Shown piece by piece: positions 1 to 41,307 of a stretch of 64,000 bases of DNA (position 1 is the first letter of the stretch; the number at the start of each line of letters is the position of its first letter). The translations under genes were made by a program, and so were the position numbers. The DNA is from Candidatus Krumholzibacteriia bacterium (lineage in GTDB: Bacteria > Krumholzibacteriota > Krumholzibacteriia > JAJRXK01). Below the pieces are notes generated by a model that made no database searches, was not told the DNA's origin, and was given only the letters and a program-made list of their open reading frames with translations. The stretch is taken from assembly GCA_035268685.1 (NCBI GenBank), contig DATFKK010000170.1, positions 11,708 through 75,707 on the forward strand, read 5' to 3'.

Positions 1-1538
1 GTTCCCGTGCGCAGCCCGAGCGCCACTTCGTTCGACACGCTCAACTGCGAACCGGCGTGGAAGTTCACCGTGGTGGTGTCGGCATGGCCGGCGATCAACG
101 GGGCGCCGCCCACGCTCCAGGTCTGCTCGAAGACGTCGAGCACGAATTCGCGGTCGTGGCCCAGGTCGGCGCCCTGGGCCAGGTCGAGGGTCCCGCCGGT
201 GAAGTCGTACAGGCTGAGCTCGCCGTTGCCGGGGCGCGTGACCAACGAGGCGAGGCAGGGATCGGCCCCCGACAGGGACCACGATGCGTCGCCGAACTCG
301 AATCCCACACCCGGGCCGCCGTCGAGGACCAACGACGCGTTCGCCGGGCCCGTCGACACGTCGACGACTCCGTCACCGCCCGACGTGTCGAAGCGCAGGA
401 CGTCCTCGGAGCCGGGAACGAAGTCGGCCGACCAGTTCGCGGTGTCGTCGTAGGACCCGGCCCCGCCCGTCCACGTGATCATCCCCTGCGGGTTCTCGGG
501 ATCGCGGCACGGCGGGCCGAGTTTCACACGGAAGATCTCGGGGGCGCCGGCGTTGGTACCCCAGCCGACGACCCACCCGGTTTCCGAGACGTCGAAGGCC
601 TTCTTCAGGTCGACCGGCCGGCCGAGCTGTGCGCTCACGAGGGCCGACAGGTCGTGGGCCCGGCCGGCCTCCCACACGATCGCTCCGAGGCCGCCGTCCC
701 AGCCCCAGCCCGCGATCTGATCGAAGTCGTTGATCGCGTGGGCGTCGGCCGACGAGTAGCCGGCGGGCAGGGGCAACTCCGAGTACGTCGCGCCGTCGTA
801 GAGGAAGGCCTGGTCGAAACCGTTCGAGGTCTCGGCGTCGCCGACCACGATGCCCGCGGAGTTCAGGTCGAGCGGATTGATCAGATCCCACGGCGCCTCG
901 GGGAGCGGCACGACGGTGTCGTCGGGCTCGATCAGGTAGACCTCGTTGCGGCTGCCGGCGAAGCGGCGGACGAGCATCGTGCCGGCCACGTTCCGGGCCA
1001 TGACCTCGCCGAACTCCACCGTTTTCGTCAGCACGTCGAACACGCCACCGGCCTCCCAGCGGAAGGGCCAGCAAGACCCGTCGTCGAGGCAGATGCGCCC
1101 GACCATCACGCCGTCGTCGCTGGTGGCGGTCGCCCGGACGAAGGACGTGCTCGCGGGCTGTACCGACTCGGTGGTGGCGAAGCCGCTCGAGGGTGACCAC
1201 ACGTAGCCGTGGGTGGGCTCGAAGTCGTTGTCGACCTTCCAGCCGGTGACCTCGCCCAAGGCGTTGATGCTCTCGACGCTGCTCTGCCACGACAGCAGCC
1301 CGGCCCACTCGCCCCCGACGCGGACGTGGCCCTGGGTGCGATTGAGCTCGGTCGCAGCCGTGAGGGCGACCACGCCGTCGTCGTTCACCACGACCTTCGA
1401 CACGCTGCGCACGGCGTCGGGCCAGCCGAGCCACTCCATGGACTCCACGGTGGGGGTCGCGGCCACCGGTACGGCAACGACGAGCGGGAAGACGGACAGG
1501 ATCGCGACGAGCACACGGATCGATCGGTCGCGGAGCAT
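1..1538 (-). CDS. Secreted HAF-repeat / beta-strand-repeat surface protein (C-terminus cut by the window edge)
   Basis: Runs off the left edge, so it is absent from the ORF track. My translation of the minus strand from the ATG (plus-strand CAT 1536-1538) gives MLRDRSIRVLVAILSVFPLVVAVPVAA (signal peptide). HAF-type repeats follow (SADAHAINDFDQIAGWGWDGGLGAIVWEAG), then G/T/S-rich beta-strand repeats. GAGG lies about 8 nt upstream of the ATG. The + ORF 57..1196 is its antisense shadow. Confidence 0.6.
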   Translation of the reverse strand, partial: MLRDRSIRVLVAILSVFPLVVAVPVAATPTVESMEWLGWPDAVRSVSKVVVNDDGVVALTAATELNRTQGHVRVGGEWAGLLSWQSSVESINALGEVTGWKVDNDFEPTHGYVWSPSSGFATTESVQPASTSFVRATATSDDGVMVGRICLDDGSCWPFRWEAGGVFDVLTKTVEFGEVMARNVAGTMLVRRFAGSRNEVYLIEPDDTVVPLPEAPWDLINPLDLNSAGIVVGDAETSNGFDQAFLYDGATYSELPLPAGYSSADAHAINDFDQIAGWGWDGGLGAIVWEAGRAHDLSALVSAQLGRPVDLKKAFDVSETGWVVGWGTNAGAPEIFRVKLGPPCRDPENPQGMITWTGGAGSYDDTANWSADFVPGSEDVLRFDTSGGDGVVDVSTGPANASLVLDGGPGVGFEFGDASWSLSGADPCLASLVTRPGNGELSLYDFTGGTLDLAQGADLGHDREFVLDVFEQTWSVGGAPLIAGHADTTTVNFHAGSQLSVSNEVALGLRTG

Positions 1539-1576
1539 GACGGCACCTCGCGGAAGCGGTCGGGGGTGCCGATGTC

Positions 1577-1610
1577 GTTTGACGGGATGCGGAGATCTCC
1601 CGCGGCGATC
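1577..1610 (-). promoter_or_regulatory. Conserved 34-nt motif, copy B, upstream of the HAF-repeat gene; candidate ECF-sigma-dependent promoter/operator
   Basis: Plus strand reads GTTTGACGGGATGCGGAGATCTCCCGCGGCGATC. It matches 5143..5176 at 28/34 positions with identical spacing. It contains the near-palindrome GGAGATCTCC and, on the coding strand, CCCGTCAAAC. It ends 38 nt upstream of the ATG at 1538. Confidence 0.55.
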
Positions 1611-1618
1611 GCGCGGGG

Positions 1619-4000
1619 TCAGCCGGCCGGTCGCCGCACGACGAGCCCGCGGAGGGCGAGCAGGACCAGTCCGAGTGCGATCCAAGGAGCGGACGGTGCG
1701 CCGTTGCCCGCCGGGCCGGTGCCGGCCAGTGCGGCGACGGGCTCGTGTCCCGGTCCGGTGAGCACGAAGGCCGCCCACTCGCGTGGGGGCAGTCCCTCGG
1801 CGCGGGCGCGCCGCCGCGCGCGGGCGAGAGCCTCGTCGCGGGGAAGTCCGGCCCGTAGCCCCTCGTACAGGTGCTCCACGAAGCGGCGGGCACCGACGTC
1901 GTCGACGTCCCACAGCGTGCTGATCACGCTGCGGGATCCCGCGCCGAGGAAGGCCCGGGGAAGTCCGAACCATCCTTCTCCGAGCACGCGGTGATCGCCG
2001 AAGGTGCTGCAGCCGCTCAGTACCACGAGGTCGTTCGACAGCTGCAGCCCGTCGACCTCGAGCGCCTCGACGACGGCCGGCCCCTCGTCGTCGGCGAGGA
2101 CCAGGGCCGATCGCCGGCCGTCGACCGGATCGACGACGGCGTGCGTGGCCAGGTGCAGCACCGCGGCGTCGCGCGTGACGTCGTCGCGGAGCATGGCGGC
2201 GGTGGCCGCTCCGCCCACGGCGACCACCGACGACGGATCACCGATCGTGCGGACCTCCTTCCGTGCTTCGGGCAGCGGAACGCCCGCCCGCGCGCGTCCC
2301 GGCGACTCGGGAAGCGGTCCCGGAGCGACGCCGCGCGGGAAGTCCGGGTCCGCCAGCGCGACCAGCGGTCCGTCGGCTGGTGCTCGCGCGGCGAGCGCGA
2401 GGAGCGACGCGGCGTTCGGCAGGTAGCCGAGCGCGACGCGATCGGTCCATTCCATCCCCTCCCGATCGCGCAGCAGGCCGAAGGGGAAGCCGGCCAGCGA
2501 CGACGGCGGGACCAGGAGCACACGGCGCGTGTCCGTGGGGATCGCCTCGAGCAGTGGCCACAGGATCTGCCGCTCCAGGCGCTCGAGGATCGGTGCGCAC
2601 GTTTCGATCGATTCGCCGGCGGCGAGCAGACGCAGGGCGGCGCGGGCGTCGGCCGCCGGCTCGTGCACCGGACCGACTTCGACGGCGACCAGCGTGTCGG
2701 CCGTCAGCACGAAGGCCACGAGCGGATCCGAGCGGGAGTCGTTGAACAGGACCAGGGCCCCGTCGTGCTCGGCGAGGATCGTCTGCAGACGATCGCGATC
2801 CGGAACGTCCTGGTCGACGCGTTCACGGAACAGCGGGGCGCGTCCGCGTTCGACCACGTCGAAGGCCGCCTCGACGTCGCCGCGCTCGAGCAGGCAGCGC
2901 GCGAGGGCGGCGTAGACCTCTCCGCTCGCCGCGAAGATCCCGGCGCGGCTGCGCTCGTCGACGAGCTCGCTCCGGCGCGCCTCGAAGAGGTCGAGCGCGG
3001 TACGCAGGGCTGCTTCGGCCTCGTCGACACGGCCGAGGGCGAAGAGGGCGTGTCCCTCGAGTCGACGCAGGACGGTGAGCAGGGGATCGTTGCCGGCGGT
3101 CCGGACTTCGTCGATCAAGGGCGGCACCGCATCCAGCGCCTCATCGGCCCGCCCCGATTCGAGCAGGGCGACGATCCGCATCTGCTCGGCGTAGCTCGCC
3201 GTGTAGCGATCTCCGTTCGCTCGGGCGAGGTCGCGGGCGCGCTCGAGCCACGGTGCAGCCCGGTCGAAGCGGCGCAGGTCGAGCAGCACGTCGCCCATGC
3301 GCATGCAGGCGATGCCTCGATGCTCTTCGAGCTCGTGGTCGTCGACCATGGCGAGGGCACGCTCCGCCCACACCAGCGCCTCGGTCGGGCGTCCGAACTG
3401 GTTCAGCAGCTGGGCCCGTCGGAGGGCGTTCGCCAGGCGGCCGGTGTGGTTGTCGGTGAAGGCCAGCCAGTGCTCTTCGCGCGCGGTGGCCTCGAGCGCC
3501 TCGGCGTTGCGGCCGATGTTTGCATAGGCGTTCGCCAGGTTGCCCCAGGTGCGCGACAGACCCACGGTGTCGGCCAGGCTGGTGCGCAGCTCGAGGGAGC
3601 GTTCGTAGACGGGCAGCGCCGCCTCGACGTCACCGCTCACGGTGTGACCGATCGCCAGCGCGTTGAGCAGCGACGATTCCGTGCGGGGCGATCCCTCGGT
3701 GCGGGCCAGGTCGACACCCCGCTGCCATCGTTCGAGCGCGAGGTCGAGCGCGTTGCGCCGATAGGCACCGATGCCCGCGACTTCGAGGCAGCGCGCGGCG
3801 AGTCCGATCTCGTCCTGGGCCCGAAGCGAATCGGCGTAGGCGAGCAGCCGTTCCTCGTGGTCTTCCATCCGCTCCGGTGTGGTGGGCCGATCCGCGAGTG
3901 CGCTGCGCGCACGGTCGACCAGCGTGGCCCTCGCGGGCAACGGCGTCGCCACCGTCGCGAGGCAAAGGAACACGGTGGCGAGCAGCCATCGACGGGTCAT
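1619..4000 (-). CDS. Exported TPR-repeat CHAT-domain (caspase-like) protease with C-terminal membrane anchor
   Basis: ORF 1619..4231 trimmed to the ATG at 4000; MTRRWLLATVFLCLATVATPLPARA is a signal peptide. The N-terminal two-thirds is TPR-like helical repeats. The C-terminal CHAT domain has intact His (VLHLATHAV) and Cys (VVLSGCSTF) dyad motifs. It ends in a hydrophobic helix plus basic tail (WIALGLVLLALRGLVVRRPAG). Its ATG overlaps the upstream stop (ATGA). Confidence 0.8.
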   Translation of the reverse strand: MTRRWLLATVFLCLATVATPLPARATLVDRARSALADRPTTPERMEDHEERLLAYADSLRAQDEIGLAARCLEVAGIGAYRRNALDLALERWQRGVDLARTEGSPRTESSLLNALAIGHTVSGDVEAALPVYERSLELRTSLADTVGLSRTWGNLANAYANIGRNAEALEATAREEHWLAFTDNHTGRLANALRRAQLLNQFGRPTEALVWAERALAMVDDHELEEHRGIACMRMGDVLLDLRRFDRAAPWLERARDLARANGDRYTASYAEQMRIVALLESGRADEALDAVPPLIDEVRTAGNDPLLTVLRRLEGHALFALGRVDEAEAALRTALDLFEARRSELVDERSRAGIFAASGEVYAALARCLLERGDVEAAFDVVERGRAPLFRERVDQDVPDRDRLQTILAEHDGALVLFNDSRSDPLVAFVLTADTLVAVEVGPVHEPAADARAALRLLAAGESIETCAPILERLERQILWPLLEAIPTDTRRVLLVPPSSLAGFPFGLLRDREGMEWTDRVALGYLPNAASLLALAARAPADGPLVALADPDFPRGVAPGPLPESPGRARAGVPLPEARKEVRTIGDPSSVVAVGGAATAAMLRDDVTRDAAVLHLATHAVVDPVDGRRSALVLADDEGPAVVEALEVDGLQLSNDLVVLSGCSTFGDHRVLGEGWFGLPRAFLGAGSRSVISTLWDVDDVGARRFVEHLYEGLRAGLPRDEALARARRRARAEGLPPREWAAFVLTGPGHEPVAALAGTGPAGNGAPSAPWIALGLVLLALRGLVVRRPAG

Positions 4001-4611
4001 CGCGGCGGGACCACCTCGAAGCTCGTGCTCGCGCTGGTCCCGCCCTCGGCGCCGTCGGGCGCGATCTCGACCACGATCCACCGCCAACGACCCGTGCTGT
4101 CCGCGGGGGTCGATTCCGGGGCGCGCACGAGGAGGGTATCGGCGACGACCTCCGTCGCGCGCCGTCGTGCCTGCGCGTCGTAGAGTTCCCACCGATAGGT
4201 GGTTCCCGGTTCGTCGGTCGTGGTCGACCATGTGAAGCGGCGGGGGAAGTGGTCGAACTCGCCCTCGGGCGCGAGCGGCGTGATGGAGCTGCCCGTGCCC
4301 CGCAGACGCGGCGTTCCGTCGTCACCGGGCTCGGTCAACGGGCCGAACACGACGAAGACGACCACCGCGGCCACCGCGGCGACCGCGGCAGCCAGGCGAC
4401 GCGGTGCCCACCGTGTCCGCCGACGCGTCGGCGTCGCGTTCGCGGTCTCCCGCAGAGTCTCGCGCATCGAGATCGCCGCGTACAGTTCCTCGCTCCGCTC
4501 CGGCGATTCGAGCGCGCGCCGCTCCCACGCCCCGCGCTCCGAGCCGGACATGTCGCCGGCAGCCCAGCGTTCGATCGCTTCGTCGTCGTGTCGATCGGGA
4601 TATTCGTTCAC
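3997..4611 (-). CDS. Single-pass transmembrane anti-sigma factor
   Basis: Lies within ORF 3997..5172. Start taken at GTG 4611, which overlaps the sigma stop (GTGA). IERWAAGDMSGSERGAWERRALESPERSEELYAA resembles an anti-sigma N-terminal helix. There is one TM segment (LAAAVAAVAAVVVFVVFGPL) and an extracytoplasmic domain of about 105 aa. No HxxxCxxC zinc motif. Confidence 0.65.
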   Translation of the reverse strand: MNEYPDRHDDEAIERWAAGDMSGSERGAWERRALESPERSEELYAAISMRETLRETANATPTRRRTRWAPRRLAAAVAAVAAVVVFVVFGPLTEPGDDGTPRLRGTGSSITPLAPEGEFDHFPRRFTWSTTTDEPGTTYRWELYDAQARRRATEVVADTLLVRAPESTPADSTGRWRWIVVEIAPDGAEGGTSASTSFEVVPPR

Positions 4612-5135
4612 GGCTGCACCCCCTCGCGCCGCAGGATCTCCTCGAGCTTCTTGCGGCAGCGGTACACGCGCCGGTAGAACACGGCCGGTTCGAGTCCGGC
4701 CCCGGCGGCCAGGTCGGCCGGCCGCTGGCCCTGGGCCATGGCCCACAACCAGCGGGCGCATTCCTCCGACACGGCGCGCAGAGTGGCCAGGGCGGCGTGG
4801 ACCGCGCGGTGGCGGCGTTCGTGGTCGAGCGCGTCGATCGGATCGGGTGCCGTATCGGCGAGGTCGATCGTGTCCACGTCGTCGTGCGAACGTCGCTTCT
4901 GGTACCAGTTGCCGGTCACGTTGCGCAGCACCACGAAACACCAGGCGAGCGGTGGATTCGCGGTTCCTTCGCGCATGGCGATGCCGGGGCCCTTCTCGAG
5001 GACGATGCCCAGGGTCTCCTGGACGACGTCCTCGACCGCGTCGTCCGGGACCCGACGTCCGGCGATCTCGAGCATGCGCGCGCGCAGGGTCGCGAGCCAG
5101 GCGGGGTCGATCGCGGGATCGTCGGCGTCGTGCAT
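4608..5135 (-). CDS. ECF-type sigma-70 family RNA polymerase sigma factor
   Basis: Last 175 codons of ORF 4608..8507, starting MHDADD at 5135. Region 2 is recognisable (AVEDVVQETLGIVLEK .. WCFVVLRNVTGNWYQKRR). So is the region 4 HTH (ECARWLWAMAQGQRPADLAAGAGLEPAVFYRRVYRCRKKL). The rest of the long ORF is the antisense shadow of recC. Confidence 0.85.
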   Translation of the reverse strand: MHDADDPAIDPAWLATLRARMLEIAGRRVPDDAVEDVVQETLGIVLEKGPGIAMREGTANPPLAWCFVVLRNVTGNWYQKRRSHDDVDTIDLADTAPDPIDALDHERRHRAVHAALATLRAVSEECARWLWAMAQGQRPADLAAGAGLEPAVFYRRVYRCRKKLEEILRREGVQP

Positions 5136-5142
5136 CGATCCG

Positions 5143-5176
5143 GTTTGACGGGTGGGGGAGATCTCCCGGCACGATC
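5143..5176 (-). promoter_or_regulatory. Conserved 34-nt motif, copy A, immediately upstream of the ECF sigma gene; candidate autoregulated promoter/operator
   Basis: Plus strand reads GTTTGACGGGTGGGGGAGATCTCCCGGCACGATC, with the perfect palindrome GGGAGATCTCCC. It matches 1577..1610 at 28/34 positions. It ends only 7 nt upstream of the sigma ATG, implying a leaderless or near-leaderless mRNA. Confidence 0.55.
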
Positions 5177-5291
5177 CAGGGTGCGCGGGAGGCGGGCTCC
5201 GGTCAACGCCGCGCCTAGCCCGGTCTCGACCGCCGCGCTGCCGCGCGCTACACTGCGCCGCCCCGAGGCTCCCGTCTCGTACCACCTGCCG

Positions 5292-8200
5292 ATGCCGATG
5301 ACCGCACCTCCCCTCGAATCCGGCCTGCGTCTGCCCACGAGCGATCGTCTGGAGGACCTGGCCGACGACCTCGTCGCCCGCCTGCACGCCCGGCCGTTGC
5401 CTCCGCTCGAGACCGAGACGGTGGTGGTGGGCAGCCGCGGCATGTCCCGCTGGTTGAACCTGCTCCTGGCCCGTGATCTGGGAATCGCCGCTTCGGTGGC
5501 GTATCCGTTTCCGTTCAACTGGGCGCGACGGACCACCGACATCGTCCTCGACCGCACCCGCAACGACACCGCCGATCCCTTCGGGCCGCAGGCCCTGCCC
5601 TGGCGGGTGCACGCCTGGCTGGGAAGGGTCGAAGAACTCGATCTCGAGCCCGACGCCCGCGCGCCGCTCGAGCGCTACCTGGCCGACGACCCCGACCGGC
5701 GCAAGCGCGGGCAACTGGCCCGGCGCGTGGCCCGCCTGTTCGTGCAGTACCAGACCCTGCGCGTGCCCGAGCTGCTGCGCTGGGAGCGCGGGGAGTGGTT
5801 CGGCGACGATCCCGACGAGAGTGGCGGCGAGATCTGGCAGCGCGCGCTGTGGAACACCCTGGTGGACGAGGCCGATCGTCCGTCGCTCGCGCGCGACCTG
5901 GACGATGGGATCGGGCGTCTGCAACGCGGGGAGGGTATCGAAGGACTTCCCCGGCGGGTCACGCTGTTCGGTCTGAGTTCGGTCCCTCCGGTGCTGCTCT
6001 CTCTCGCCGAGGCGGTGTCCCGGCACCGCGAGGTGACGATCGCCACGCTCACGCCCACACGCGAGTACATCGGCGACGCGCGTCCGGCGCGGTGGCAACC
6101 GGTCGAGCAGGGAGACCTGTTCGACGCGGCGAAGGTCCACCCGTTGCTCGCCGAGTGGGGGCGGGTGGGCCGTGACCTGCAGGATCAGCTGACCGAACTC
6201 GAGGGCATCCATCCGGAGGTCCAGCGGGAGACGGCACCCGAGAGGACCGTGCTCGGCCAGCTGCAGCAGGATCTGCTCGACGCCCGCATGCCGGCCCGCG
6301 CGGACGAACGCGCGGCTCCCGAACGCGTGCGCGTGCGGCCCGACGACCGTTCGCTGCGCATCCACGTGTGCCATTCCGAGCGCCGCGAGATCGAAGTGCT
6401 GCGCGACGAGATCCTGCGCGCCTTCGAAGAAGGGGTGGTGCGCGAGCCCTCGGACGTGCTGGTCCTCGTGCCCGACATCGATCGCTACGCGCCCTTCGTG
6501 CGGGCCGTCTTCGAGAGCCCGCGCGCGACCCCGGCGGGCCCGGTGCACCTTCCGGTGCAGGTGGCGGACGGGCGCGACACCGACCACTCCGACTTCGCCC
6601 GCTTCGCGCTCGACCTGCTCGACCACGCCGGTGGACGCCACACGGCGAGTGGCGTGCTCGAACTGCTCGAGTCCGGACCCGTGGCGCGTCGCTTCGGTCT
6701 GGACGACGTGCCGACGAGCGACGTGCACGACCTGGTCCGCGGAGCCGGTATCCGCTTCGGTCGCGATCCGGTGACGCGCGCGGCCGAACACGATCTCCCG
6801 GATCTCGACGGCGGCACGTGGCGCGAGGGACTCGACCGCCTGGTGCTGGGCTTCGCCCTGGGCCGCTCGGACGTGACGATCGACGGTGTGGTTCCCCGTG
6901 CCGACGCCACGACCGGCCGCGCGGAGACCGTGGGGCGTCTGGCCACCGCCGTCGACGCACTGTTCGCACAGCTCGACCGGCTGGTCCGGCCGCGCTCGTT
7001 GCGGCGGTGGTGCGAGGACCTGCGGTCGGCACTGTTCGCGCTCACCGCCGCCGACGGTCGGACCGACGCCGCACTGCGCGTCGACCTGGTGCGGACGATC
7101 GAGGCCCTGGCCGAGGTCGCCCGCGACGACGACACCGACGTCGCGCGCAGTACCTTCGCCGCCGCACTGCGTGCGCAGCTCGCCGACGACGCGGCCGGGC
7201 AGGGTTTCGTGAGTGGCAGCATCACCGTGGCCGAGTTGCGGCCCATGCGGAGTCTGCCCTACGCGATGATCGCCGTCGCCGGACTCGACAGCGATTCCTT
7301 CCCGCGCCGGGATCCGGCCGAAGGGCTCGATCTCACCCGAGGTCGGCCGCGTCGCGGGGACCGCTCGCCCCGCGCCGACGACCGGCAGATGCTCTTGGAG
7401 GTGCTGACCTCGGCCCGCCGGCGCCTGGCGCTGACGGCCATCGGGATGTCGCAACGCGACGGTACGGAGATCGCGCGCAGCGTGTGTCTGGACGAACTGG
7501 TCGACGTGATCGATGCGAGTTTCGTGGTCGACGCCGATCCCGACACGAAGCCTTCGGCGGTGCTCACCGTGGAGCACCGACTGCAACCTTTCCACGCCGC
7601 GTACGGCCGAGACGACCATCCCGAGCACTTCACCTACGCGCGCGAGACCGTCGACGCCGCGCGCGCGTTGCGTTCGCGGACGGCGGAACGCAGTCCCTTC
7701 GTCGACTCCTGCCGTGTCGACGACGGCCTGGTCCGCGACGCCGAGGGCCGCGCGCTGGTGACCGTCGACGACCTCGTCACCTTCTGGCGCAACCCCTGTC
7801 GCTGGTTCGTCGCGCGCGTGCTGGGCATGGCGCTGCACTTCGACGAGGGCGACCTCGACGACGAGCCCTTCGGCGTGGACGCACTCGGCAAGTATCGGAT
7901 CCGACGCTGGATGGTCGATCACGTGGACGACCTGCCGCCCGTCGACGCGATCGTGGAGCGCGCCGAACACGAACTGGGCACGGCGAGCGGTCGCTCGGGA
8001 CGCGCGCATGCGCGCGAGGTGGTCGAGACCACGCTCGGACGTTGGCACGACGTGCTCGCCTCGGATCCGCGGCCGCGGACGCGGGAGGTCGATCGGAGTG
8101 GGCCGACCTGGCGTCTGACCGGGACGCTCGACATCGACCCCGCGCAGGGTCAGGTCGTGTGGACACCGAAGCCGAAGGTCGAGGCCGATGCCCTGATCGA

Positions 8201-8690
8201 GGCCTACGTGCGGCACGTGATCCTGGGGGCCACGCGCGGTGAGGACGGCCCGCCGCCGTGGGCGACCTGTGTCGTCGCGGCCGAGGGCGCGTTCAAGGTC
8301 CTCACCGATGGGGTCGGAGATCCCATCGCTCTGCTCGACGAGATGATCGCAGGCTTCGTCGAGGGTCAGCGCCGACCCCTGCGGTTCTTCCGACGCAGCA
8401 CGGTGGCGTGGTGCTCGAAGACCCGGGGCGTCGACGATCGCTTCGACCCCGACGTCGCGCGGCACGGTTTCGGCGAGTTGGCCTCGGCCTGGGAGGGAGA
8501 CCACCACGCGCGGGGGGACCGCGGCGACGACGAGGTCACCCTCTGCATGCGGGGCGTGCGGACCTCGGAACTGATCGACGACGACTTCCTGCGTTGGGCG
8601 CGGCTCTTCGATCCGGTCGTCGTCGCGACCAGCGGCCGCAAGAAGGCGAAGTGGCCGCCGGCGTCCGGCGCGAAGGGGGGGACTTCGTGA
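5292..8690 (+). CDS. recC: Exodeoxyribonuclease V gamma subunit RecC
   Basis: ORF 4404..8690 trimmed to MPMTAPPLESGLRLPTSDRLEDLADDLV. The N-terminus matches the RecC pattern (VVVGSRGMSRWLNLLLARDLGIAASVAYPFP). Length is about 1130 aa. It is followed by recB with a GTGA overlap. Confidence 0.85.
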   Translation: MPMTAPPLESGLRLPTSDRLEDLADDLVARLHARPLPPLETETVVVGSRGMSRWLNLLLARDLGIAASVAYPFPFNWARRTTDIVLDRTRNDTADPFGPQALPWRVHAWLGRVEELDLEPDARAPLERYLADDPDRRKRGQLARRVARLFVQYQTLRVPELLRWERGEWFGDDPDESGGEIWQRALWNTLVDEADRPSLARDLDDGIGRLQRGEGIEGLPRRVTLFGLSSVPPVLLSLAEAVSRHREVTIATLTPTREYIGDARPARWQPVEQGDLFDAAKVHPLLAEWGRVGRDLQDQLTELEGIHPEVQRETAPERTVLGQLQQDLLDARMPARADERAAPERVRVRPDDRSLRIHVCHSERREIEVLRDEILRAFEEGVVREPSDVLVLVPDIDRYAPFVRAVFESPRATPAGPVHLPVQVADGRDTDHSDFARFALDLLDHAGGRHTASGVLELLESGPVARRFGLDDVPTSDVHDLVRGAGIRFGRDPVTRAAEHDLPDLDGGTWREGLDRLVLGFALGRSDVTIDGVVPRADATTGRAETVGRLATAVDALFAQLDRLVRPRSLRRWCEDLRSALFALTAADGRTDAALRVDLVRTIEALAEVARDDDTDVARSTFAAALRAQLADDAAGQGFVSGSITVAELRPMRSLPYAMIAVAGLDSDSFPRRDPAEGLDLTRGRPRRGDRSPRADDRQMLLEVLTSARRRLALTAIGMSQRDGTEIARSVCLDELVDVIDASFVVDADPDTKPSAVLTVEHRLQPFHAAYGRDDHPEHFTYARETVDAARALRSRTAERSPFVDSCRVDDGLVRDAEGRALVTVDDLVTFWRNPCRWFVARVLGMALHFDEGDLDDEPFGVDALGKYRIRRWMVDHVDDLPPVDAIVERAEHELGTASGRSGRAHAREVVETTLGRWHDVLASDPRPRTREVDRSGPTWRLTGTLDIDPAQGQVVWTPKPKVEADALIEAYVRHVILGATRGEDGPPPWATCVVAAEGAFKVLTDGVGDPIALLDEMIAGFVEGQRRPLRFFRRSTVAWCSKTRGVDDRFDPDVARHGFGELASAWEGDHHARGDRGDDEVTLCMRGVRTSELIDDDFLRWARLFDPVVVATSGRKKAKWPPASGAKGGTS

Positions 8691-11600
8691 ACGAGACCTC
8701 CCGGAGGTTCGATCCCGTCTGCCAACCCCTCGACCGTTTTCCCCTGTTGATCGAAGCGAGCGCGGGGACGGGCAAGACCTGGTCGTTGACCGCGCTGGCC
8801 ACCCGACTGGTCGTCGAGGGCAGGGTCGCCTCGATCGACCGGTTGCTGCTGGTGACCTTCACCGTGGCCGCAACGCACGAGCTGCGCGAACGTCTGCGCA
8901 CACGTCTCCAGGACACACGGAACGCGTTGATGGGCTGCAAGGTCGACGACGACTTCGTGCAGCGCCTCGTGGAGCGGTGCGACGACCGTGCGCTCGCCCG
9001 CGATCGTGTCCTGCGCGCCCTGCGCGACTTCGACGAAGCACGCGTGAGCACGATCCACGGCTTCTGCGCGCGCGTGCTGCAGGACAGCGCCTTCGAGGCG
9101 GGACTGGTCTTCGAGACCGACGAGACGCAGGACAGCGACTTCCTCCGGCAGGTGGCGGTGGCCGACGCCTGGCGTGCGCAGGTGCAGGCCGGCCCACCCT
9201 GGCGCGCGGCGTGGCTGGCCGAGAAGAGCTACCCGCCGCGCAAGGAAGGGCGGGGTCGTGATCTGTACGCCGACCTGGAGACGCGGCTGCAGTACGACGG
9301 CGCCGAGTTCCTGCCCGCCGTCGAGAGCTCGGTCGACGACGCCGACCGCGAGGTGCGCGGCATCCTCGCCGGTCTCCTGGACGACCCGGGGTTCCTGGAG
9401 TCGTTGCGGGAGGCGGTCGACACGGTGGAACAGGGCCTGGCCGGACGACACCGCGCGCGTTTCGAGGAGTTCCGTCGGATCGTGGACGAGGGCGCCCTGG
9501 CCGACGACGAGACCACCTGGTCGGTTCTCATGGGTCTGCTGCCCGGAAGGATCGAGAAGACCGTCGGCACGAAGCCGCTGAAGAACGAGGTGTGGAAGGC
9601 CGTCGTCGACCGCCTGGAACCGCTGGAGTCCTCTCTGGAGCGCGGATTCGAGGTCCTGCGGCGGGCATTGCTCGAATCGGCGGCCCGGCGCTTCGCCGCG
9701 GCCAAGCAGGCGGCGAACCTGCGCGACTTCGACGACATGATCGGCGAGGTGCACGACCGGCTGATCGACCCCGACACCCGTCGCGCTCTGCGGAACCGCA
9801 TCCGCGGCTCGATCGACGCCGCGCTGGTCGACGAGTTCCAGGATACCGACATTCGTCAGTGGACGATCTTCGAGACGCTCTTCACCGACGCGCCGTTGAT
9901 CCTCGTGGGCGATCCCAAGCAGGCCATCTACGGATTCCGCGGTGCCGACGTCTTCGCCTACCTTCGGGCGCGCGACGCCGCCCGGGCGACCACCTCGTTG
10001 CCCGGCAACCACCGCAGCCATCCCGATCTGGTCGAGACGGTGAACGCGCTCTTCACCGCCGACGGCGCCTTCGCGCTCGACGACCTGCAGTCGGGTCGGG
10101 TGCAGGCCGAGAAGTCGGCCGAGGCCCTGTCGATCGGAGATGGTCGACCGGCGGTGGAATGGATCCGGATCGACGCCGACGGGGCCCGGGAGTTCGGAGG
10201 CACGAAGAAGGACGACTACCGGCGTGCCTCATGTGCCCGGGTGGTCGAGCACACGCAGCGCCTGCTGCGGTCGCGGGTCCCGATCGACGGCGAGAGGGTT
10301 CATCCCGGACACGTGGCCGTGCTCACCCGTTCCCACGCCCAGAGCCGCGAGATGCAGGACACCTTCCGCGAGGCCGGTATCGACGCGATCGTGCGCGGTT
10401 CGGGCGACGTGCGGGCGACCGACGTCGTGGCCGAGGCGGGAGCGGTGCTCGAGGCGGTCCTCGATCCGACCGACACCCGGCGCGTCCGCACCGCGCTGGC
10501 CACGCGACTGTGGGGCGCACCGCTCTCCCGCCTCACGGGACTCGAACACGACGAGCGCGCCATGGCCGACGTCGTGGTCGAACTGGAGGCGTTGCGGGAA
10601 CGCTGGCGGCGCCGCGGCGCGTTCGACGTCCTGTCGTCGATCGTGGCCGAGCGCGAGGTCGAGGTCCGGTGGCTGTCCGAGCGCGACGGCGAGCGCGACG
10701 TCACCGATCTCCGTCACGCCATGGAGTGGATCCACGGCCTCGAGACCGAGCGTGGCCTGCGTCCCGAGGGCACCGTGGCGGCGCTGTGGTCCGAGCGTGA
10801 CGGCGACGAGAACGACGTCACGCGCCTGCGCCTGGAGCGCGACGAGCGCGCGGTGAAGATCGTCACCGCCCACGCGAGCAAGGGGCTGCAGTACCCGGTG
10901 GTGTTCGTGCCCTTCGCGTGGGAGGACCGCCCGGCACGCGCGCCGTGGGTCCACCACGATCCGGACGACCGGACCCGCGTGACCGTGGACTGGCGGACCG
11001 TCGATGCCGACGACGCGTGTCGCGAGCGCGCCGTGGTCGAAGGGCTGTCCGAGGAACTGCGTCTGCTCTACGTGGCGATGACACGGGCGGAGCGCCGCTG
11101 CGTGGTCGTCGACACCGACTTCACGCCCCGGAGTGTCGAGAAGGCCGAACGCCGTTTCTCGCCCCTGCACTGGTTGTTGCACCGGCCCGCACGAGCCGAG
11201 GGCGAATCGACGACGGGCTGGGTGGCCCGCGCGCTCGACGTGCTGAAGGCCGAGCCGGGTTCCGGGAGCCGTCACGAGGAACTCCGTCGCCTGAATTCCT
11301 GCGAGGCCGTCCGGGCCGAGGCGGAACCGACGACAGCCGATGCCGACGACGTCGGCGAACTGCGGGCGCGTGTGCTTCCCGCCGACGTGCGCGGTCGTCT
11401 CGTCCCCTGGTACGTGTCGAGCTTCACGCGCCTGACCCGCGACGTCGACCCAAGCGTCCCGCCCGAGGTCGCGCTCGCCGAACACGACGATCCCGCGGTC
11501 GAAACCACCGCCGCCGTGAGTGCGTCCGTGCCCGAGGGCATCTTCGCCTTCGCTCGTGGTCCCCGCGCCGGTGACTGCCTGCACGAGATCCTCGAGCACA

Positions 11601-12313
11601 GCGACTTCGGCGCCGATCCGGCCGATCCCGATCACCGCGACCGCGTGCGCCGGATCCTCGAGAACCACGACATGCTCCGACCGGCCGCCCACGCCGCCGA
11701 CATCGACCCCTTGCGCGAAGCGGTGGACCTGGTCGCCCGGGTGGGACGTGAACGCGTTCCCGGAGAGGACTTCGAACTCGCCCGGGTCGACGCGGCCCAC
11801 CGTGCGAACGAGTGGAACTTCCGTCTCCCGGTCGATCACCTCGACCTGCCGCGTCTCGCGCGAGCACTGCGCGACCACGCGCCGCGGGACATCGCCGACG
11901 GTCTCGTCGACGAACTGATGGCCCAGCCGGGTCGGCAGGAGGGCGGACTCTTCGGTGGCATCGTCGACCTCGTCTTCGAACACGAAGGTCGGTGGTTCCT
12001 GATCGACTGGAAGAGCAACCACCTCGGCGACGACGTCGACGACTACCATCCCGACGCCGTGCACCGCGCGATGATCGAGCACGCCTACCACCTGCAGTTG
12101 TTGCTGTACCAGGTCGCGCTGCACCGGCATCTGAGCGTGCGTCTCCGGGACTACGACTACGATCGTCACTGCGCCGGGGGCGCCTACGTCTTCCTGCGCG
12201 GACTGTGCGGACGCCCCGACCGGGGCTGGGTGCGGTGGCGGCCCGACCGGGCCCTGGTCGGCGCGGTCGACGCCTGCTTCGCCGTGGCGGCGGTGGAAGG
12301 GGGTGCGCGATGA
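8687..12313 (+). CDS. recB: Exodeoxyribonuclease V beta subunit RecB (helicase-nuclease)
   Basis: GTG start at 8687 overlaps the recC stop. Walker A is LLIEASAGTGKTWSL. UvrD-type helicase motifs are present (VDEFQDTD, VGDPKQAIYGFRGADV). The C-terminal nuclease region contains GGIVDLVFEHEGRWFLIDWKSN. Confidence 0.9.
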   Translation: MNETSRRFDPVCQPLDRFPLLIEASAGTGKTWSLTALATRLVVEGRVASIDRLLLVTFTVAATHELRERLRTRLQDTRNALMGCKVDDDFVQRLVERCDDRALARDRVLRALRDFDEARVSTIHGFCARVLQDSAFEAGLVFETDETQDSDFLRQVAVADAWRAQVQAGPPWRAAWLAEKSYPPRKEGRGRDLYADLETRLQYDGAEFLPAVESSVDDADREVRGILAGLLDDPGFLESLREAVDTVEQGLAGRHRARFEEFRRIVDEGALADDETTWSVLMGLLPGRIEKTVGTKPLKNEVWKAVVDRLEPLESSLERGFEVLRRALLESAARRFAAAKQAANLRDFDDMIGEVHDRLIDPDTRRALRNRIRGSIDAALVDEFQDTDIRQWTIFETLFTDAPLILVGDPKQAIYGFRGADVFAYLRARDAARATTSLPGNHRSHPDLVETVNALFTADGAFALDDLQSGRVQAEKSAEALSIGDGRPAVEWIRIDADGAREFGGTKKDDYRRASCARVVEHTQRLLRSRVPIDGERVHPGHVAVLTRSHAQSREMQDTFREAGIDAIVRGSGDVRATDVVAEAGAVLEAVLDPTDTRRVRTALATRLWGAPLSRLTGLEHDERAMADVVVELEALRERWRRRGAFDVLSSIVAEREVEVRWLSERDGERDVTDLRHAMEWIHGLETERGLRPEGTVAALWSERDGDENDVTRLRLERDERAVKIVTAHASKGLQYPVVFVPFAWEDRPARAPWVHHDPDDRTRVTVDWRTVDADDACRERAVVEGLSEELRLLYVAMTRAERRCVVVDTDFTPRSVEKAERRFSPLHWLLHRPARAEGESTTGWVARALDVLKAEPGSGSRHEELRRLNSCEAVRAEAEPTTADADDVGELRARVLPADVRGRLVPWYVSSFTRLTRDVDPSVPPEVALAEHDDPAVETTAAVSASVPEGIFAFARGPRAGDCLHEILEHSDFGADPADPDHRDRVRRILENHDMLRPAAHAADIDPLREAVDLVARVGRERVPGEDFELARVDAAHRANEWNFRLPVDHLDLPRLARALRDHAPRDIADGLVDELMAQPGRQEGGLFGGIVDLVFEHEGRWFLIDWKSNHLGDDVDDYHPDAVHRAMIEHAYHLQLLLYQVALHRHLSVRLRDYDYDRHCAGGAYVFLRGLCGRPDRGWVRWRPDRALVGAVDACFAVAAVEGGAR

Positions 12314-16049: not shown

Positions 16050-16239
16050 CGCCCGGCCCGTTCCGTGAAGGAGTCGGAGGGAGAATCTGCACTCTTCCCG
16101 GCCACGAGCGCTTCTCCTCCCTCCGTGCCGTGCACTATGGGCGAAGCCGTCCCGTATATCCAGTCTTGATTCGTGATATCGCCGATCGTTTCCACTTCGA
16201 GCCGTATCGGGTGGGGGAGGATTTCCTCGATTTTCCCCC

Positions 16240-16268
16240 TGGACAACCAAACATCTGTTTCACATACT
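16240..16268 (+). promoter_or_regulatory. Candidate sigma-70 promoter of the dinB operon (-35 TGGACA, 17-nt spacer, -10 CATACT)
   Basis: TGGACA at 16240-16245 and CATACT at 16263-16268. It lies in a locally GC-poorer 327-bp intergenic region, about 110 nt upstream of the dinB ATG. Confidence 0.45.
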
Positions 16269-16290
16269 GCCGGTCACCAAACAGATGTGT
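16249..16290. promoter_or_regulatory. Two related palindromic operator-like sites (candidate LexA/SOS boxes)
   Basis: AAACAtcTGTTT (16249-16260) sits inside the -35/-10 spacer. AAACAgaTGTgT (16279-16290) is 30 bp downstream. Both are preceded by ACC (gACAACC / gTCACC). lexA is in the operon they precede. Confidence 0.4.
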
Positions 16291-16376
16291 GGTCTCGGGC
16301 CTCCCGGATGGGGAGAAGACGAGGCACGCATCCGACGCCCCACCGGGGGCACCCTCGAATCCGGGATCCGGAGCGC

Positions 16377-17675
16377 ATGCGCCGCAAGTGGTTCGCCCAC
16401 GTCGACATGGACGCATTCTACGCGTCGGTCGAGGTGCTCGACCAGCCCCGACTCGCCGGTCGGCCGATCGCCGTGGGTGGACGCTCCGAGCACCGGGGCG
16501 TGATCGCCGCGGCTTCCTACGCCGCGCGCAGGTTCGGCGTGCGCAGCGCCATGCCCACGGCCGAAGCGCTGCGCCGCTGCCCGGAGCTCGTGCTGATCCC
16601 CGGACGCATGGAGCGCTACGCCGAGAAGAGCCGCGAGGTCATGCAGATCCTGCGGCAGGTCGCGCCCGCGGTCGAACCCCTGTCCCTCGACGAGGCCGCA
16701 CTCGATCTCACCGGCTGTGCCCGTCTGCACGGCGCCGACGTCGAGATCCGGGGCGATCGCCGCGAGGACTGGTCCCGGTTCGCCCTGGAGCTGCGCCGGC
16801 GCATTCGCACGCGCACCGGTCTCTGGTGTTCGATCGGTCTGGGCGAGACCCGACGCATCGCGAAGATCGCCAGTGACCTCCGGAAGCCGCGGGGTGTGGC
16901 CGTGGTGGAGGCCGGCGCCGGCCCGGATTTCTTCTCCGGTCTGCCCATCGAGCGACTGTGGGGCGTCGGTCCCAAGATGCGCGAGCGCCTGCGCGCGGCC
17001 GGAATCCGTACCGTGGCCGATGTCGTCGCCACGCCGCGCCCGGAGCTCGCCGCCCGCTTCGGCAAGGCCGGACCGTTGTTGCACGACGTCGTCCATGCCC
17101 GCGAGACCGGCCGCGTCGATCCCGACCGTCCACACAAGAGCGTCAGCCACGAGACCACGTTCTCCGTCGACCGTACCGGTCTCGAGGAACTCGAGCCGGT
17201 GTTGCAGAGGTTGTCCGACAAGGTCGGGGCACGCCTCCGCCGGGCCGGCCTGGCGGGGCGGGTGATCGTCCTCAAGATCCGCGACCGCGGCTTCCACACC
17301 TTCACCCGTCGGCGCTCCCTGGCCGCGGCCACCGACTCCGACACCACCATCTACGAGACCGGCCGAAGGCTGCTGGAGTCGATGGACTGGGACCGGGTCC
17401 CCGTGCGCCTGATCGGCATCGGGGTCACCGACCTGGCCAGTGTGTCGGCGCAGCAGGGCGACCTGTTCGCCAGCGAGATCGAGCGCGAACGGCCCCGGCT
17501 CGAGCGCGCCCTCGACGCGGTCCACGAACGCTTCGGTGAGGGCGCCATCGGTCACGCCCGCAGCGTGCTCGATCCACTGCGCCGCCGTGACGGCGTGTCA
17601 TGGCTGCCCAGCGCCCCCGCCCCGAGTGCGCCCAGGACGGCCGACGACGACGACTCCGACCCCAGGGAGAACTGA
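16377..17675 (+). CDS. dinB: DNA polymerase IV (Y-family translesion polymerase), catalytic residues intact
   Basis: ORF 16173..17675 trimmed to MRRKWFAHVDMDAFYASVE. Other motifs: SYAARRFGVRSAMP, SLDEAALDLTG. A possible clamp-binding QGDLF lies after the little finger. Confidence 0.9.
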   Translation: MRRKWFAHVDMDAFYASVEVLDQPRLAGRPIAVGGRSEHRGVIAAASYAARRFGVRSAMPTAEALRRCPELVLIPGRMERYAEKSREVMQILRQVAPAVEPLSLDEAALDLTGCARLHGADVEIRGDRREDWSRFALELRRRIRTRTGLWCSIGLGETRRIAKIASDLRKPRGVAVVEAGAGPDFFSGLPIERLWGVGPKMRERLRAAGIRTVADVVATPRPELAARFGKAGPLLHDVVHARETGRVDPDRPHKSVSHETTFSVDRTGLEELEPVLQRLSDKVGARLRRAGLAGRVIVLKIRDRGFHTFTRRRSLAAATDSDTTIYETGRRLLESMDWDRVPVRLIGIGVTDLASVSAQQGDLFASEIERERPRLERALDAVHERFGEGAIGHARSVLDPLRRRDGVSWLPSAPAPSAPRTADDDDSDPREN

Positions 17676-19869: not shown

Positions 19870-19944
19870 GGCCCCATCGTCTAGTGGTTAGGACATCACC
19901 CTTTCAAGGTGAGGACACGGGTTCGATTCCCGTTGGGGCTGCCA
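19870..19944 (+). tRNA. tRNA-Glu (anticodon UUC), CCA encoded
   Basis: GGCCCCATCGTCTAGTGGTTAGGAC .. anticodon stem TCACC/GGTGA with loop CTTTCAA .. T-arm ACGGGTTCGATTCCCGT .. acceptor TGGGGCT-G-CCA. Cloverleaf folded by hand. Confidence 0.85.
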
Positions 19945-34300: not shown

Positions 34301-34470
34301 CGGTCGGTTCCCTTCGACGGATCCGGGAGGCCGACCGCGCCGCACACCCGTGGGCGCGCGAAGGAGGGCGCGGCCGCTGCACTCCCGGTCTCCTTCACAG
34401 GATTCCGGGAGTGCGGGCCCGTGTCAAGATGGTGCGGCGTCGGTTGATGCGGCCGCACCAGCCGGGGTGC

Positions 34471-38732: not shown

Positions 38733-38763
38733 GGTGTCCTCCGGGACGGGGTCGAGGTCGATC

Positions 38764-40236
38764 TCAGCGGGCGTCGACGTGTTCGGGTAGTGGGACCATC
38801 GAGAAGGGCTCGAGGGCATCGACGATCGGCGATCCGCTGGGCACGCGCGTGGGCACGGTCGGATCCGAACGGCCGTCGATCGTACGGTCGGTCATCGCGT
38901 GCATGAACGCGACGAGATCGTCGACCTCCTGATCGGTCAGGTCGATCGGGACCAGGCGGTCGTCGAGCAGGTCGGGGGTCAGGATCGGTCCCGGCGTGCG
39001 CGTCATCTGCAGGCGGCCCATGTATCGATCGTAGATCGCTGACCACTCGGGTCGGGTTTCCGGGTCGGGCGGAACGCCCGCGATCAGGTGGAAGATCACC
39101 ACGTCGCGCAGACTGTTCGCCGTGCCGTGGCGGAACCAAGGTCCCGTCAGGGCCACGTTACGCAGCGTCGGCACGCGGTATCGGTGCACGTCCTCGGGAT
39201 TCGAGGTGTGCTCCATGCGGCCGATGTCCACGCCGTTGCCGCCGCGCTCCACCGGGTACCGGCCGGGCGCGCGGGGGTTGTCGGCGACGCCGATCCGCGA
39301 GAACGAGAAGTCGCTGAACATGGGTCCGGAGTGGCAGGCGGCGCAGTTCGCCTTCCCGTAGTAGAGGTCGGCGCCCCGGAGCTGCTCGAGGGTCAGGGCT
39401 CGGTCGTCCCCTCGCACCCACTGGTCGTAGGCGCTGTCGATCGTCACCAGTTCGCGCTGGTAGGCGGCCAACGCACGCTCCAGCGTGTTCTTCCGGACGA
39501 CCTGCTCGGTCGGATCCGCCTCCGCGGCTTCCCCGGGGAAGGCCTGCGCGAACAGGTCGACGTACTCGTCGATCTGTTGCAACCGGGCGACCATCGTGTC
39601 GGCCGCCGCCGAGTCGGAGTAGGTGTGGACGCCGTGGTTGGGCAGGTGGTAGCTCATCTCGTCGATGGTCGCCGTGGGTTGCAGCGACTGACGCTCCAGG
39701 CCCGCCGTCCGACCATCCCAGAGCAGCAGTCCGCGGTGGCTCGGCGGACCGCCGGCTTCGGCGCTGTTGAAGCCGACGTTCATCGCGGTGGGGGTGTTGC
39801 GCGGCATCAGCATGACGTTCTCGTCGGTGAGCACGCGCTCGGGACCGAAGCCGGACCCGCTGACCCCGGAGCTGAGGTCCACGCCGTCCTGCCAGGCCAT
39901 TGCAGGGTGGTGGCAGCTGCCGCAACTGGTGTCGAGTCGTCCGGACAAGAGCTGGTCGAAGAACAGGAAGCGGCCCAGCTCCAGGCGCTTCTCGAAGCCC
40001 GGCTCCGACGGCGCGTTCTGTGGCGGATACGGCAGATCGCCCAGCTCGAGTGTCTCGAGGGCGTAGACCTCGCGCGGGTCCGGCCCATCGAAGTCGTCGT
40101 AGGGATTCGGGCGGTCGTCGACCGGAGAGGAGGGACCGCCGTCGTCCGAGCAGCCTCCGAGCGAGAGCAGGGCCGAAGCGGAGAAGACGACGAGGATGCA
40201 CGTTGCGAGACCACGTGGCAGACCACGAGGCATCAT
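38764..40236 (-). CDS. Di-haem cytochrome c peroxidase (CCP/MauG family) lipoprotein
   Basis: Lipobox LLSLGGC. Two CxxCH motifs (CGSCHHP, CAACHSG). PTLRNVALTGPWFRHG is typical of CCP. Confidence 0.8.
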   Translation of the reverse strand: MMPRGLPRGLATCILVVFSASALLSLGGCSDDGGPSSPVDDRPNPYDDFDGPDPREVYALETLELGDLPYPPQNAPSEPGFEKRLELGRFLFFDQLLSGRLDTSCGSCHHPAMAWQDGVDLSSGVSGSGFGPERVLTDENVMLMPRNTPTAMNVGFNSAEAGGPPSHRGLLLWDGRTAGLERQSLQPTATIDEMSYHLPNHGVHTYSDSAAADTMVARLQQIDEYVDLFAQAFPGEAAEADPTEQVVRKNTLERALAAYQRELVTIDSAYDQWVRGDDRALTLEQLRGADLYYGKANCAACHSGPMFSDFSFSRIGVADNPRAPGRYPVERGGNGVDIGRMEHTSNPEDVHRYRVPTLRNVALTGPWFRHGTANSLRDVVIFHLIAGVPPDPETRPEWSAIYDRYMGRLQMTRTPGPILTPDLLDDRLVPIDLTDQEVDDLVAFMHAMTDRTIDGRSDPTVPTRVPSGSPIVDALEPFSMVPLPEHVDAR

Positions 40237-41160: not shown

Positions 41161-41282
41161 TACACAGAACCGTAGAGCGATCCGTACGACGAACGGCGAG
41201 GCGCCCCCGAGCCCGCAGGCTCCCGGTGCAGGCCCGACTCCGGCGCCCCGCCACGTTCGTGACGTGCTCCAAGATGAGGGCA

Positions 41283-41307
41283 CACCGTTCCAGACTACGG
41301 AACGGTG
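41283..41307. promoter_or_regulatory. Perfect 9-bp inverted repeat upstream of the WYL regulator (candidate operator)
   Basis: CACCGTTCC-agactac-GGAACGGTG, about 60 nt upstream of the preferred GTG start at 41368. Confidence 0.4.

Follow-up and report, generated by a model that had tools for sequence, protein, structure and literature searches.

We analysed a 64,000-nucleotide stretch of DNA from a Candidatus Krumholzibacteriia bacterium (GenBank assembly GCA_035268685.1, contig DATFKK010000170.1, positions 11,708 to 75,707 of the forward strand), hereafter the window, whose left end has a G+C content of about 71% and carries four genes on the minus strand. The first (4608..5135) encodes a divergent sigma factor of the extracytoplasmic function (ECF) type of 175 amino acids (aa), the second (3997..4611) a predicted single-pass anti-sigma factor of 204 aa and the third (1619..4000) a 793-aa protein in which TPR repeats precede a CHAT domain. 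The anti-sigma gene begins with a GTG that overlaps the sigma stop codon by 4 nt (GTGA), and the ATG of the TPR-CHAT gene overlaps the anti-sigma stop codon in the same manner (ATGA); on the plus strand these junctions read TCAC at 4608-4611 and TCAT at 3997-4000. An 80-nt gap then separates the CHAT stop codon from the start of a HAF-repeat gene, of which the 5' part (1..1538, more than 512 aa) lies in the window and the remainder beyond its left end. An earlier note on this DNA, made from the sequence alone, had described these genes as a CRISPR-free cassette consisting of an ECF sigma, a single-pass anti-sigma with about 105 aa on the periplasmic side, an exported and C-terminally anchored TPR-CHAT protease with an intact dyad, and a secreted HAF-repeat output protein. 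Both overlaps were verified on the sequence, every coordinate and motif quoted in that note was correct, and the four assignments were upheld at the level of prediction; the choice of type III-E CRISPR systems as the best precedent and the idea of a conserved four-gene unit fared less well.

The sigma factor matches the curated ECF models only below their thresholds. The window protein scored 26.3 bits against NCBIfam TIGR02937 (cut-off 42.9) and 13.4 bits against Pfam Sigma70_r2 (cut-off 24), and it thus falls outside the ECF family as delimited by the curated thresholds of Pfam Sigma70_r2/r4_2 and TIGR02937. A profile built from seven orthologues (A6; loci L002-L006, L009 and L023) aligned over its positions 33-175 with residues 38-176 of Mycobacterium tuberculosis SigL in the PDB (E 4.4e-5), across both the sigma2 and the sigma4 region, and the remaining PDB matches at E<0.2 were ECF sigma factors too (5uxx, SigH/E, SigR and RpoE). 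The protein also has the build of an ECF (group 4) sigma-70 factor: it is short (175 aa), resembles sigma2 and sigma4 and has neither sigma1.1 nor sigma3. Partner sigma factors at three related loci (L010, L022 and L024) carry recorded Pfam r2/r4_2 matches. By these profile comparisons the ECF identity given in the earlier note holds, with the qualification that the window protein is a divergent member.

The 204-aa product of the second gene has no match above threshold to any curated family in Pfam or NCBIfam. An AlphaFold2 (AF2) model built from 43 sequences, with a mean predicted local distance difference test score (pLDDT) of 81.6, placed in order three helices (residues 5-17, 23-35 and 37-58), a transmembrane helix (70-89), a linker and a beta-sandwich (110-200). 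The three helices form an N-terminal bundle (residues 5-58, 4438..4599, pLDDT about 83-93). The transmembrane span (residues about 70-92, 4336..4404) coincides with the only hydrophobic peak, which reaches 2.6 at residues 68-96. It is preceded by the basic segment RRRTRWAPRR and followed by acidic residues; the basic segment places the N terminus inside the cell, so that about 112 aa, slightly more than first estimated, would lie outside the membrane. The beta-sandwich (residues 110-200, 4012..4284) was modelled with pLDDT >90 and resembled FN3 and cytokine-receptor domains in Foldseek; no Pfam family covers it. The N-terminal helices, the single transmembrane segment, the extracytoplasmic C-terminal domain and the position directly downstream of a sigma gene are those of a class I membrane anti-sigma factor with an anti-sigma domain (ASD). 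Both the window protein and its Krumholzibacteriia orthologues lack the zinc-binding HxxxCxxC (ZAS) motif, and neither His nor Cys occurs in the three-helix domain in alignments A3 and A5. The ZAS motif is not obligatory for class I anti-sigma factors. Distant members of the family (L010, L011, L022, L025 and L028) retain HxxxCxxC, which ties the family to the classical anti-sigma factors, and 4 of 43 members gave weak matches to zf-HC2. The Krumholzibacteriia branch has lost the zinc motif. Taken together, sequence and model clearly predict an anti-sigma factor, which would bind and inhibit the adjacent sigma.

The CHAT domain of the third gene product matches Pfam PF12770 above its cut-off (168.3 bits, cut-off 24, E 3.4e-49; residues 471-749, 1754..2590; profile positions 3-288 of 289), and several Pfam TPR families match the same protein. 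A hydrophobic N-terminal segment has the features of a signal peptide (residues 1-25 ending in ARA before a T, 3926..4000); a signal-like segment with an AxA-like site was present in 16 of 16 orthologues. At the other end, hydropathy indicated a membrane anchor at residues 769-789, followed by RR (1634..1696), in which AF2 modelled a helix at 773-788; every orthologue, and the distant partners too, had a C-terminal hydrophobic stretch with a basic tail. Since a signal peptide is combined with a C-terminal anchor, the protein is predicted to be periplasmic, and the module is placed in that compartment. The two motifs expected of the catalytic site, LHLATHAV (His620, codon at 2141-2143) and VVLSGCSTF (Cys664, codon at 2009-2011), are present, and both dyad residues are invariant in the 16 orthologues. 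When a family profile (A2) was compared with the PDB, the best solved relative was DdvA (8rot_B, E 5e-8), and His620 and Cys664 fell on its residues H862 and C907, which have been defined as the DdvA catalytic dyad (PMC11506125). A single-sequence phmmer search of the PDB returned TPR proteins only, whereas DdvA and separase came within reach with the family profile. The AF2 model (pLDDT 83.5, predicted template modelling score 0.76) also had DdvA as its first match in a Foldseek search of the PDB (8rw5/8rot, E 4e-14), with Csx29 second (about 1e-11) and separase after them. Sequence identity between the window protein and DdvA is only about 16%. These comparisons predict a caspase-like peptidase with an intact dyad. 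In addition, a loop of low confidence within the CHAT domain, ahead of the catalytic His (residues about 556-572, window 2285-2335), contains an invariant Arg569 and has the conserved flanking sequence LPxSPAR..AGxPLPEAR; it might serve in autoprocessing or regulation.

We then asked of related loci which neighbours accompany these genes. The sigma, anti-sigma and CHAT genes were found together in each of the 13 other loci whose flanking DNA was long enough, in three different gene orders. The order of the window (sigma, anti-sigma, CHAT) was kept in L002-L006, that is, in five of five orthologue loci with upstream DNA, with tight packing and overlaps. The CHAT orthologues of 50-55% identity came from metagenome-assembled genomes labelled Candidatus Krumholzibacteriia or Krumholzibacteria, two being labelled Fibrobacteraceae. 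The CHAT gene came first, followed by sigma and anti-sigma, in L009 (43% identity), in its close relative L023 and in L011; in the first two the 4-nt overlaps were kept in spite of the permutation. Translational coupling by such overlaps, as in the window, was conserved in L002-L006, L009 and L023. In a third arrangement (L010, L022, L024, L025 and L027) sigma and anti-sigma faced a convergent CHAT gene. Distant TPR-CHAT proteins of 28-32% identity (L010 and L011) likewise adjoined an ECF sigma and a small anti-sigma. An independent search, started from the periplasmic domain of the anti-sigma factor, led to a TPR-CHAT gene in five of five loci with enough flank (L022-L025 and L027); the convergent genes of L022, L024, L025 and L027 encode proteins of 958-984 aa, the L027 gene being cut by the contig end. 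All partner proteases had an N-terminal hydrophobic segment, a C-terminal anchor with a basic tail, and HxATHA; LSGC or LSAC was matched in all but L010. In one locus only (L012), the sigma gene was followed by a single gene for a fused zf-HC2, transmembrane and TPR-CHAT protein, which is the architecture of DdvA. The triad was found in several uncultured lineages, namely Krumholzibacteriia together with two or more other clades of high GC. A cyanobacterial CHAT protein of 25% identity (L008) was rejected as a member. Found by a peptide-pattern match (L008 6393-10112; 1,239 aa), it has a haemagglutinin-type (FHA) N-terminal secretion domain fused to CHAT and represents a different CHAT class; none of the listed ORFs on its flanks was recognisable as a sigma gene, no domain scan having been run on them.

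The recurrence of the triad bears on the simplest objection, namely that the adjacency is coincidental or that the small protein has been wrongly taken for an anti-sigma factor. The window anti-sigma does lack both a curated family match above threshold and the zinc motif, and the sigma lies under the curated thresholds. Against this, the triad is present at 13 other loci, the anti-sigma gene always follows an ECF sigma gene and mostly overlaps it by 4 nt, distant members of the family carry HxxxCxxC or match zf-HC2 weakly, and AF2 predicts a three-helix N-terminal domain followed by a transmembrane helix. We regard coincidence as very improbable. The functional coupling of the three genes is well supported, judging from their co-occurrence through three orders, the fusion, the shared predicted compartment and the invariant dyad.

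A possible point of contact between protease and anti-sigma factor emerged from the anti-sigma family itself. HMMER was run exhaustively against 1.84 billion cluster representatives, of which 5,164 matched at E≤1e-3 and, among these, 1,159 at E≤1e-10. About 110 of the best 150 matches were full-length look-alikes of about 200 aa, and the remainder were giant proteins of 1,000-3,500 aa (such as P0149, P0153, P0156 and P0159), in which the FN3-like beta-sandwich is repeated 5-26 times in tandem. An alignment of 151 small members showed that the best-conserved positions are Arg104 (148/151), Pro115 (148/151), Gly117 (142/151) and Gly107 (139/151), which define, a few residues beyond the membrane on its outer side, a hydrophobic-Arg-Gly-(Asp/Glu) motif. 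In the window protein it reads R102-L103-R104-G105-T106-G107 (4291..4308) and falls in a linker of low model confidence (residues 94-105, pLDDT <50). Since the repeat in the giant proteins begins only after this motif, the motif is specific to the anti-sigma factors. Its conservation within a flexible juxtamembrane linker makes it a candidate site of recognition or cleavage by a protease. Cleavage after Arg is known from several clan CD relatives of the CHAT peptidases, such as separase, metacaspases and gingipain R.

By profile and fold, the closest known system is DdvA/DdvS of Myxococcus xanthus and not the type III-E Csx29/Csx30/RpoE system that the earlier note had put forward; DdvA was the top match in both kinds of search. 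DdvA is a membrane anti-sigma factor whose periplasmic TPR-CHAT part has been proposed, not demonstrated, to act as a site-1 protease (PMC11506125). Proteins of this type, with anti-sigma, transmembrane and TPR-CHAT parts fused, have been reported as restricted to Myxococcota and one Comamonas; the CHAT active site of DdvA lacks the three-helix motif and its arrangement is dimeric. The window has in common with DdvA that an ECF sigma gene precedes a gene for a single-pass anti-sigma, which has three helices in its cytoplasmic domain. Also shared are a TPR-CHAT of the separase/craspase type that faces the periplasm and has a canonical His-Cys dyad, and the proposed logic, in which CHAT would make the site-1 cut in a flexible juxtamembrane linker and RseP would act next. 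It differs in several respects. In the window, as in the 13 related loci, anti-sigma and TPR-CHAT are two polypeptides, and the protease has a signal peptide and a C-terminal anchor of its own; the anti-sigma carries an FN3-like domain and the Arg-Gly linker motif in place of a TPR scaffold; the zinc motif is lost in the window lineage; and the CBASS/CRISPR-Cas defence island associated with DdvA has no equivalent next to the module, whose neighbours are recC/recB-like and housekeeping genes. In PDB searches the window sigma and the anti-sigma domain had no specific similarity to DdvS or to the DdvA N terminus. We found no description of the split anti-sigma/TPR-CHAT form in the literature searched, which describes the fused DdvA type only.

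The likeness to type III-E systems holds at the level of logic and no further. In the type III-E craspase system (Cas7-11/gRAMP with Csx29, Csx30, Csx31 and RpoE), genetic linkage likewise joins a TPR-CHAT protease, an ECF-type sigma and a sigma-binding protein that serves as its substrate, and Csx29 structures were the second-best fold matches (E about 1e-11). In contrast, craspase is cytoplasmic, RNA-activated and bound to Cas7-11, whereas the window protease is predicted to be exported and its candidate substrate is a membrane anti-sigma factor. The window sigma scored 21.2 bits against the type III-E sigma model NF041236 (cut-off 100). No cas gene or CRISPR array was found in the 64 kb, no Rfam CRISPR family matched, and none of the four proteins had a PADLOC match, in agreement with the description of the cassette as CRISPR-free.

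The proposed scheme also resembles classical regulated intramembrane proteolysis (RIP), as in RseA/DegS/RseP, RsiW/PrsW/RasP, MucA/AlgW and FecR/Prc, where a single-pass anti-sigma factor is cut at site 1 in the periplasm and then at site 2 within the membrane. In those systems the site-1 enzymes are serine proteases, metalloproteases or signal peptidases, usually encoded elsewhere, whereas here a dedicated caspase-like cysteine protease would be encoded alongside. A comparable gene set is CnrH/CnrY/CnrX, where the genes for a sigma and its small membrane anti-sigma are accompanied by one for a separate periplasmic sensor anchored in the membrane; CnrX is a small metal-binding sensor without a protease domain, and it has no homology to the window module. 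Anti-sigma factors with SEAL domains and RsgI cleave themselves non-enzymatically, by a different chemistry (PMC10328401, PMC10556640). CHAT, subtilase and carboxypeptidase genes have been reported from the genomic context of the ECF54 group, for which proteolytic control has been suggested; that group is described as actinobacterial and as having no anti-sigma factor (PMC8999054). It thus shares with the window an ECF sigma with a CHAT neighbour but differs in that the window has a clear anti-sigma candidate. The ECF reclassification paper (PMC7826278) makes no reference to CHAT in its main text.

The fourth gene stands apart from this triad. The HAF protein matched TIGR02913 above its cut-off (35.1 bits, cut-off 22.65, residues 225-251) and has a signal peptide, as predicted for a secreted HAF-repeat protein. 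Of the conserved four-gene neighbourhood that the earlier note had envisaged, the triad stood. The HAF gene adjoined it only in L001, which is 97% identical in DNA and belongs to the same species, and the genes downstream of CHAT differed from locus to locus in L002-L007; a four-gene unit was therefore rejected. A link between the two parts in this lineage is suggested by a 41-nt element (repeat family D2) present in two copies on the same strand (minus) with 78% identity. Copy 1 (5136..5176), with the core GGGAGATCTCC-N5-CCGTCAAAC, abuts the sigma ATG, its core ending 8 nt upstream, and copy 2 (1570..1610) lies in the CHAT-HAF gap, with 38 nt between core and HAF ATG. The core has exactly two matches in the 64 kb, where none would be expected by chance. 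Copy 1 was identical in L026 and copy 2 in L001; since these loci are 96-97% identical in DNA, they are too similar to inform on conservation of the element. A metagenome-wide scan for the core gave only nine chance matches, on unrelated contigs of 33-62% GC. The sharing of the element upstream of both the sigma and the HAF gene supports their co-regulation.

As a canonical ECF promoter the element was rejected, since its GGGAGA and CGTC are 11-13 nt apart and its GATCG and CGTC 21 nt, as compared with the usual 16-18 nt. An RNA hairpin was rejected too, since no compensatory changes between the copies lengthen the 10-bp palindrome GGAGATCTCC. The palindrome could equally well be an operator. 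A scan of positions 1-5600 for sigma-70 promoters and intrinsic terminators found nothing. Orthologous operons have a different upstream motif, CTGGACC-N17-CTATA[CG]TGGA, 60-70 nt before the sigma ATG (L002 1802-1835, L004 704-737 and L005 6809-6842); since an in-frame stop codon occurs inside it in L002, the motif is a DNA-level signal and not coding sequence. A possible conserved hairpin (GTCGCC...GGCGGC) comes after the motif in L004 and L005. A possible counterpart in the window, TTGACC-N17-CACCCTGGAT (5177..5207, minus strand), resembles the motif as judged by eye only.

The HAF gene and the element raise the question of whether the TPR-CHAT protein is itself an output: co-transcribed with an autoregulated sigma/anti-sigma pair, it might process other envelope or secreted proteins, for instance large ones of the surface like the HAF-repeat protein, while the anti-sigma factor is inactivated in some other way. 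Regulon members are common in ECF operons, whose neighbours may be regulators or targets according to the reclassification paper (PMC7826278). In the window the CHAT gene is the last of the operon, in L010, L022, L024, L025 and L027 it is convergent and separately transcribed, and a secreted HAF gene adjoins it with a shared cis element. For an output, however, one would not expect adjacency to survive three rearrangements and lineages of 25-30% identity while all other neighbours change. Moreover, the fused forms (DdvA and L012) carry TPR-CHAT on the anti-sigma factor itself, and the output reading leaves the conserved Arg-Gly motif of the linker unexplained. We consider it unlikely that the protease is only an output.

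We favour instead a split, three-component ECF envelope-signalling module like DdvA/DdvS, in which the anti-sigma factor is cleaved at site 1 by a caspase-like protease, and we give this reading a probability of about one half. In the mechanism that we infer, the cytoplasmic three-helix domain of the anti-sigma factor would hold the sigma at the inner membrane in the resting state and would present to the periplasm a flexible linker with the hydrophobic-Arg-Gly motif, followed by the FN3-like domain. The exported TPR-CHAT protein, with its TPR superhelix and intact CHAT domain, would be tethered to the same membrane through its C-terminal helix. A periplasmic signal, sensed by TPR-CHAT or by an FN3 domain docked on it, would then activate His620/Cys664, and the protease would cut the juxtamembrane linker, with Arg104 or a directly neighbouring position as the likeliest site. 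The remaining stub would be exposed to an intramembrane protease of the RseP type, and the released sigma would transcribe the operon that encodes it. In this lineage it would probably also transcribe the adjacent HAF gene with the shared 41-nt element. That CHAT is the site-1 protease of the anti-sigma factor is plausible and has support from comparative genomics. When DdvA is deprived of its TPR-CHAT part, the stub becomes a substrate of RseP (PMC11506125); this, together with the preference of several clan CD proteases for Arg, lends help to the proposals of cleavage and of its site.

The same arrangement could work without any cut in the anti-sigma factor. In such a periplasmic complex the linker and FN3 domain would serve as a securin-like pseudosubstrate, or TPR-CHAT would shield site 2 until removed by dissociation or self-degradation. 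Separase is kept inactive by a pseudosubstrate, the DdvA structure shows a resting dyad in an incomplete active site, and in DdvA the mass of TPR-CHAT blocks RseP (PMC11506125). The linker motif would suit a pseudosubstrate as well as a substrate. The invariance of the catalytic His and Cys in every partner examined argues that catalysis is used, and a complex without cleavage of the anti-sigma factor seems to us an improbable explanation.

Several points weigh against site-1 cleavage by CHAT in a general module of this kind. The conserved Arg-Gly might instead cap the FN3 domain structurally or serve for docking. Mutants of the DdvA dyad had no phenotype in the conditions tested, and autoproteolysis of DdvA has only been proposed (PMC11506125). 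No gene for a site-2 (M50) protease was seen among the window ORFs scanned, which are part of the ORFs in the 64 kb. The 41-nt element departs, as sequence, from canonical ECF -35/-10 spacing. The anti-sigma family is large (the 5,164 representatives at E≤1e-3), and the genomic contexts inspected are a small sample of it. Finally, in two short contigs with family members (L028 and L029, ≤1.6 kb) a non-CHAT gene lies immediately downstream, the other side being outside the contig; because of these, the association of the triad, although strong, may not be universal.

Elsewhere in the window, a recC-like gene (Exonuc_V_gamma, RecC_C) and a recB-like gene (UvrD helicase with a PD-(D/E)XK nuclease) occupy 5292-12313 on the plus strand, divergent from the sigma gene, across a shared 156-nt intergenic region (5136-5291). 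A gene for a Y-family polymerase (IMS) lies at 16170-17675, about 11 kb from the sigma gene. In L009 (3391-5782) and L023 (1-1811) the CHAT operon adjoins a cassette of lexA, a gene of unknown function and a Y-family polymerase; the proximity of an IMS polymerase in these loci and in the window is probably a coincidence. The only Rfam match in the window was a tRNA gene at 19870-19941 (plus strand). Three large minus-strand proteins, a DUF3160 protein (31703-34423), an FG-GAP/ASPIC protein (36483-38891) and an M1 peptidase (45406-48177), have a FlgD_ig domain at their C termini, which may be a lineage-specific tag for sorting or secretion. A regulator with WYL/WCX domains is encoded at 41278-42411 (plus strand).

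Of the many ECF groups, only a few are understood as to how the membrane anti-sigma factor senses its signal and which protease makes the first cut. The proposed self-cleavage of DdvA could not be demonstrated because its signal is unknown and because enzyme and substrate are one chain. Since they are separate proteins here, the caspase-driven RIP hypothesised for DdvA can be tested directly in trans, and the module supplies a specific candidate motif for the cut. The loci collected suggest that the split design is far more widespread than reported. More tentatively, and with a little less confidence than in the cleavage itself, we consider that stand-alone, tethered periplasmic TPR-CHAT proteins might define a widespread and hitherto undescribed class of ECF modules, serving as dedicated site-1 proteases of their cognate anti-sigma factors that cut at the nearly invariant hydrophobic-Arg-Gly motif of the juxtamembrane linker, with DdvA as the rare fused form. 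If the cleavage is true, caspase-like proteases could be a new class of site-1 protease in bacterial transmembrane signalling, and the control of sigma factors by prokaryotic TPR-CHAT proteins would seem older and broader than CRISPR type III-E and DdvA.

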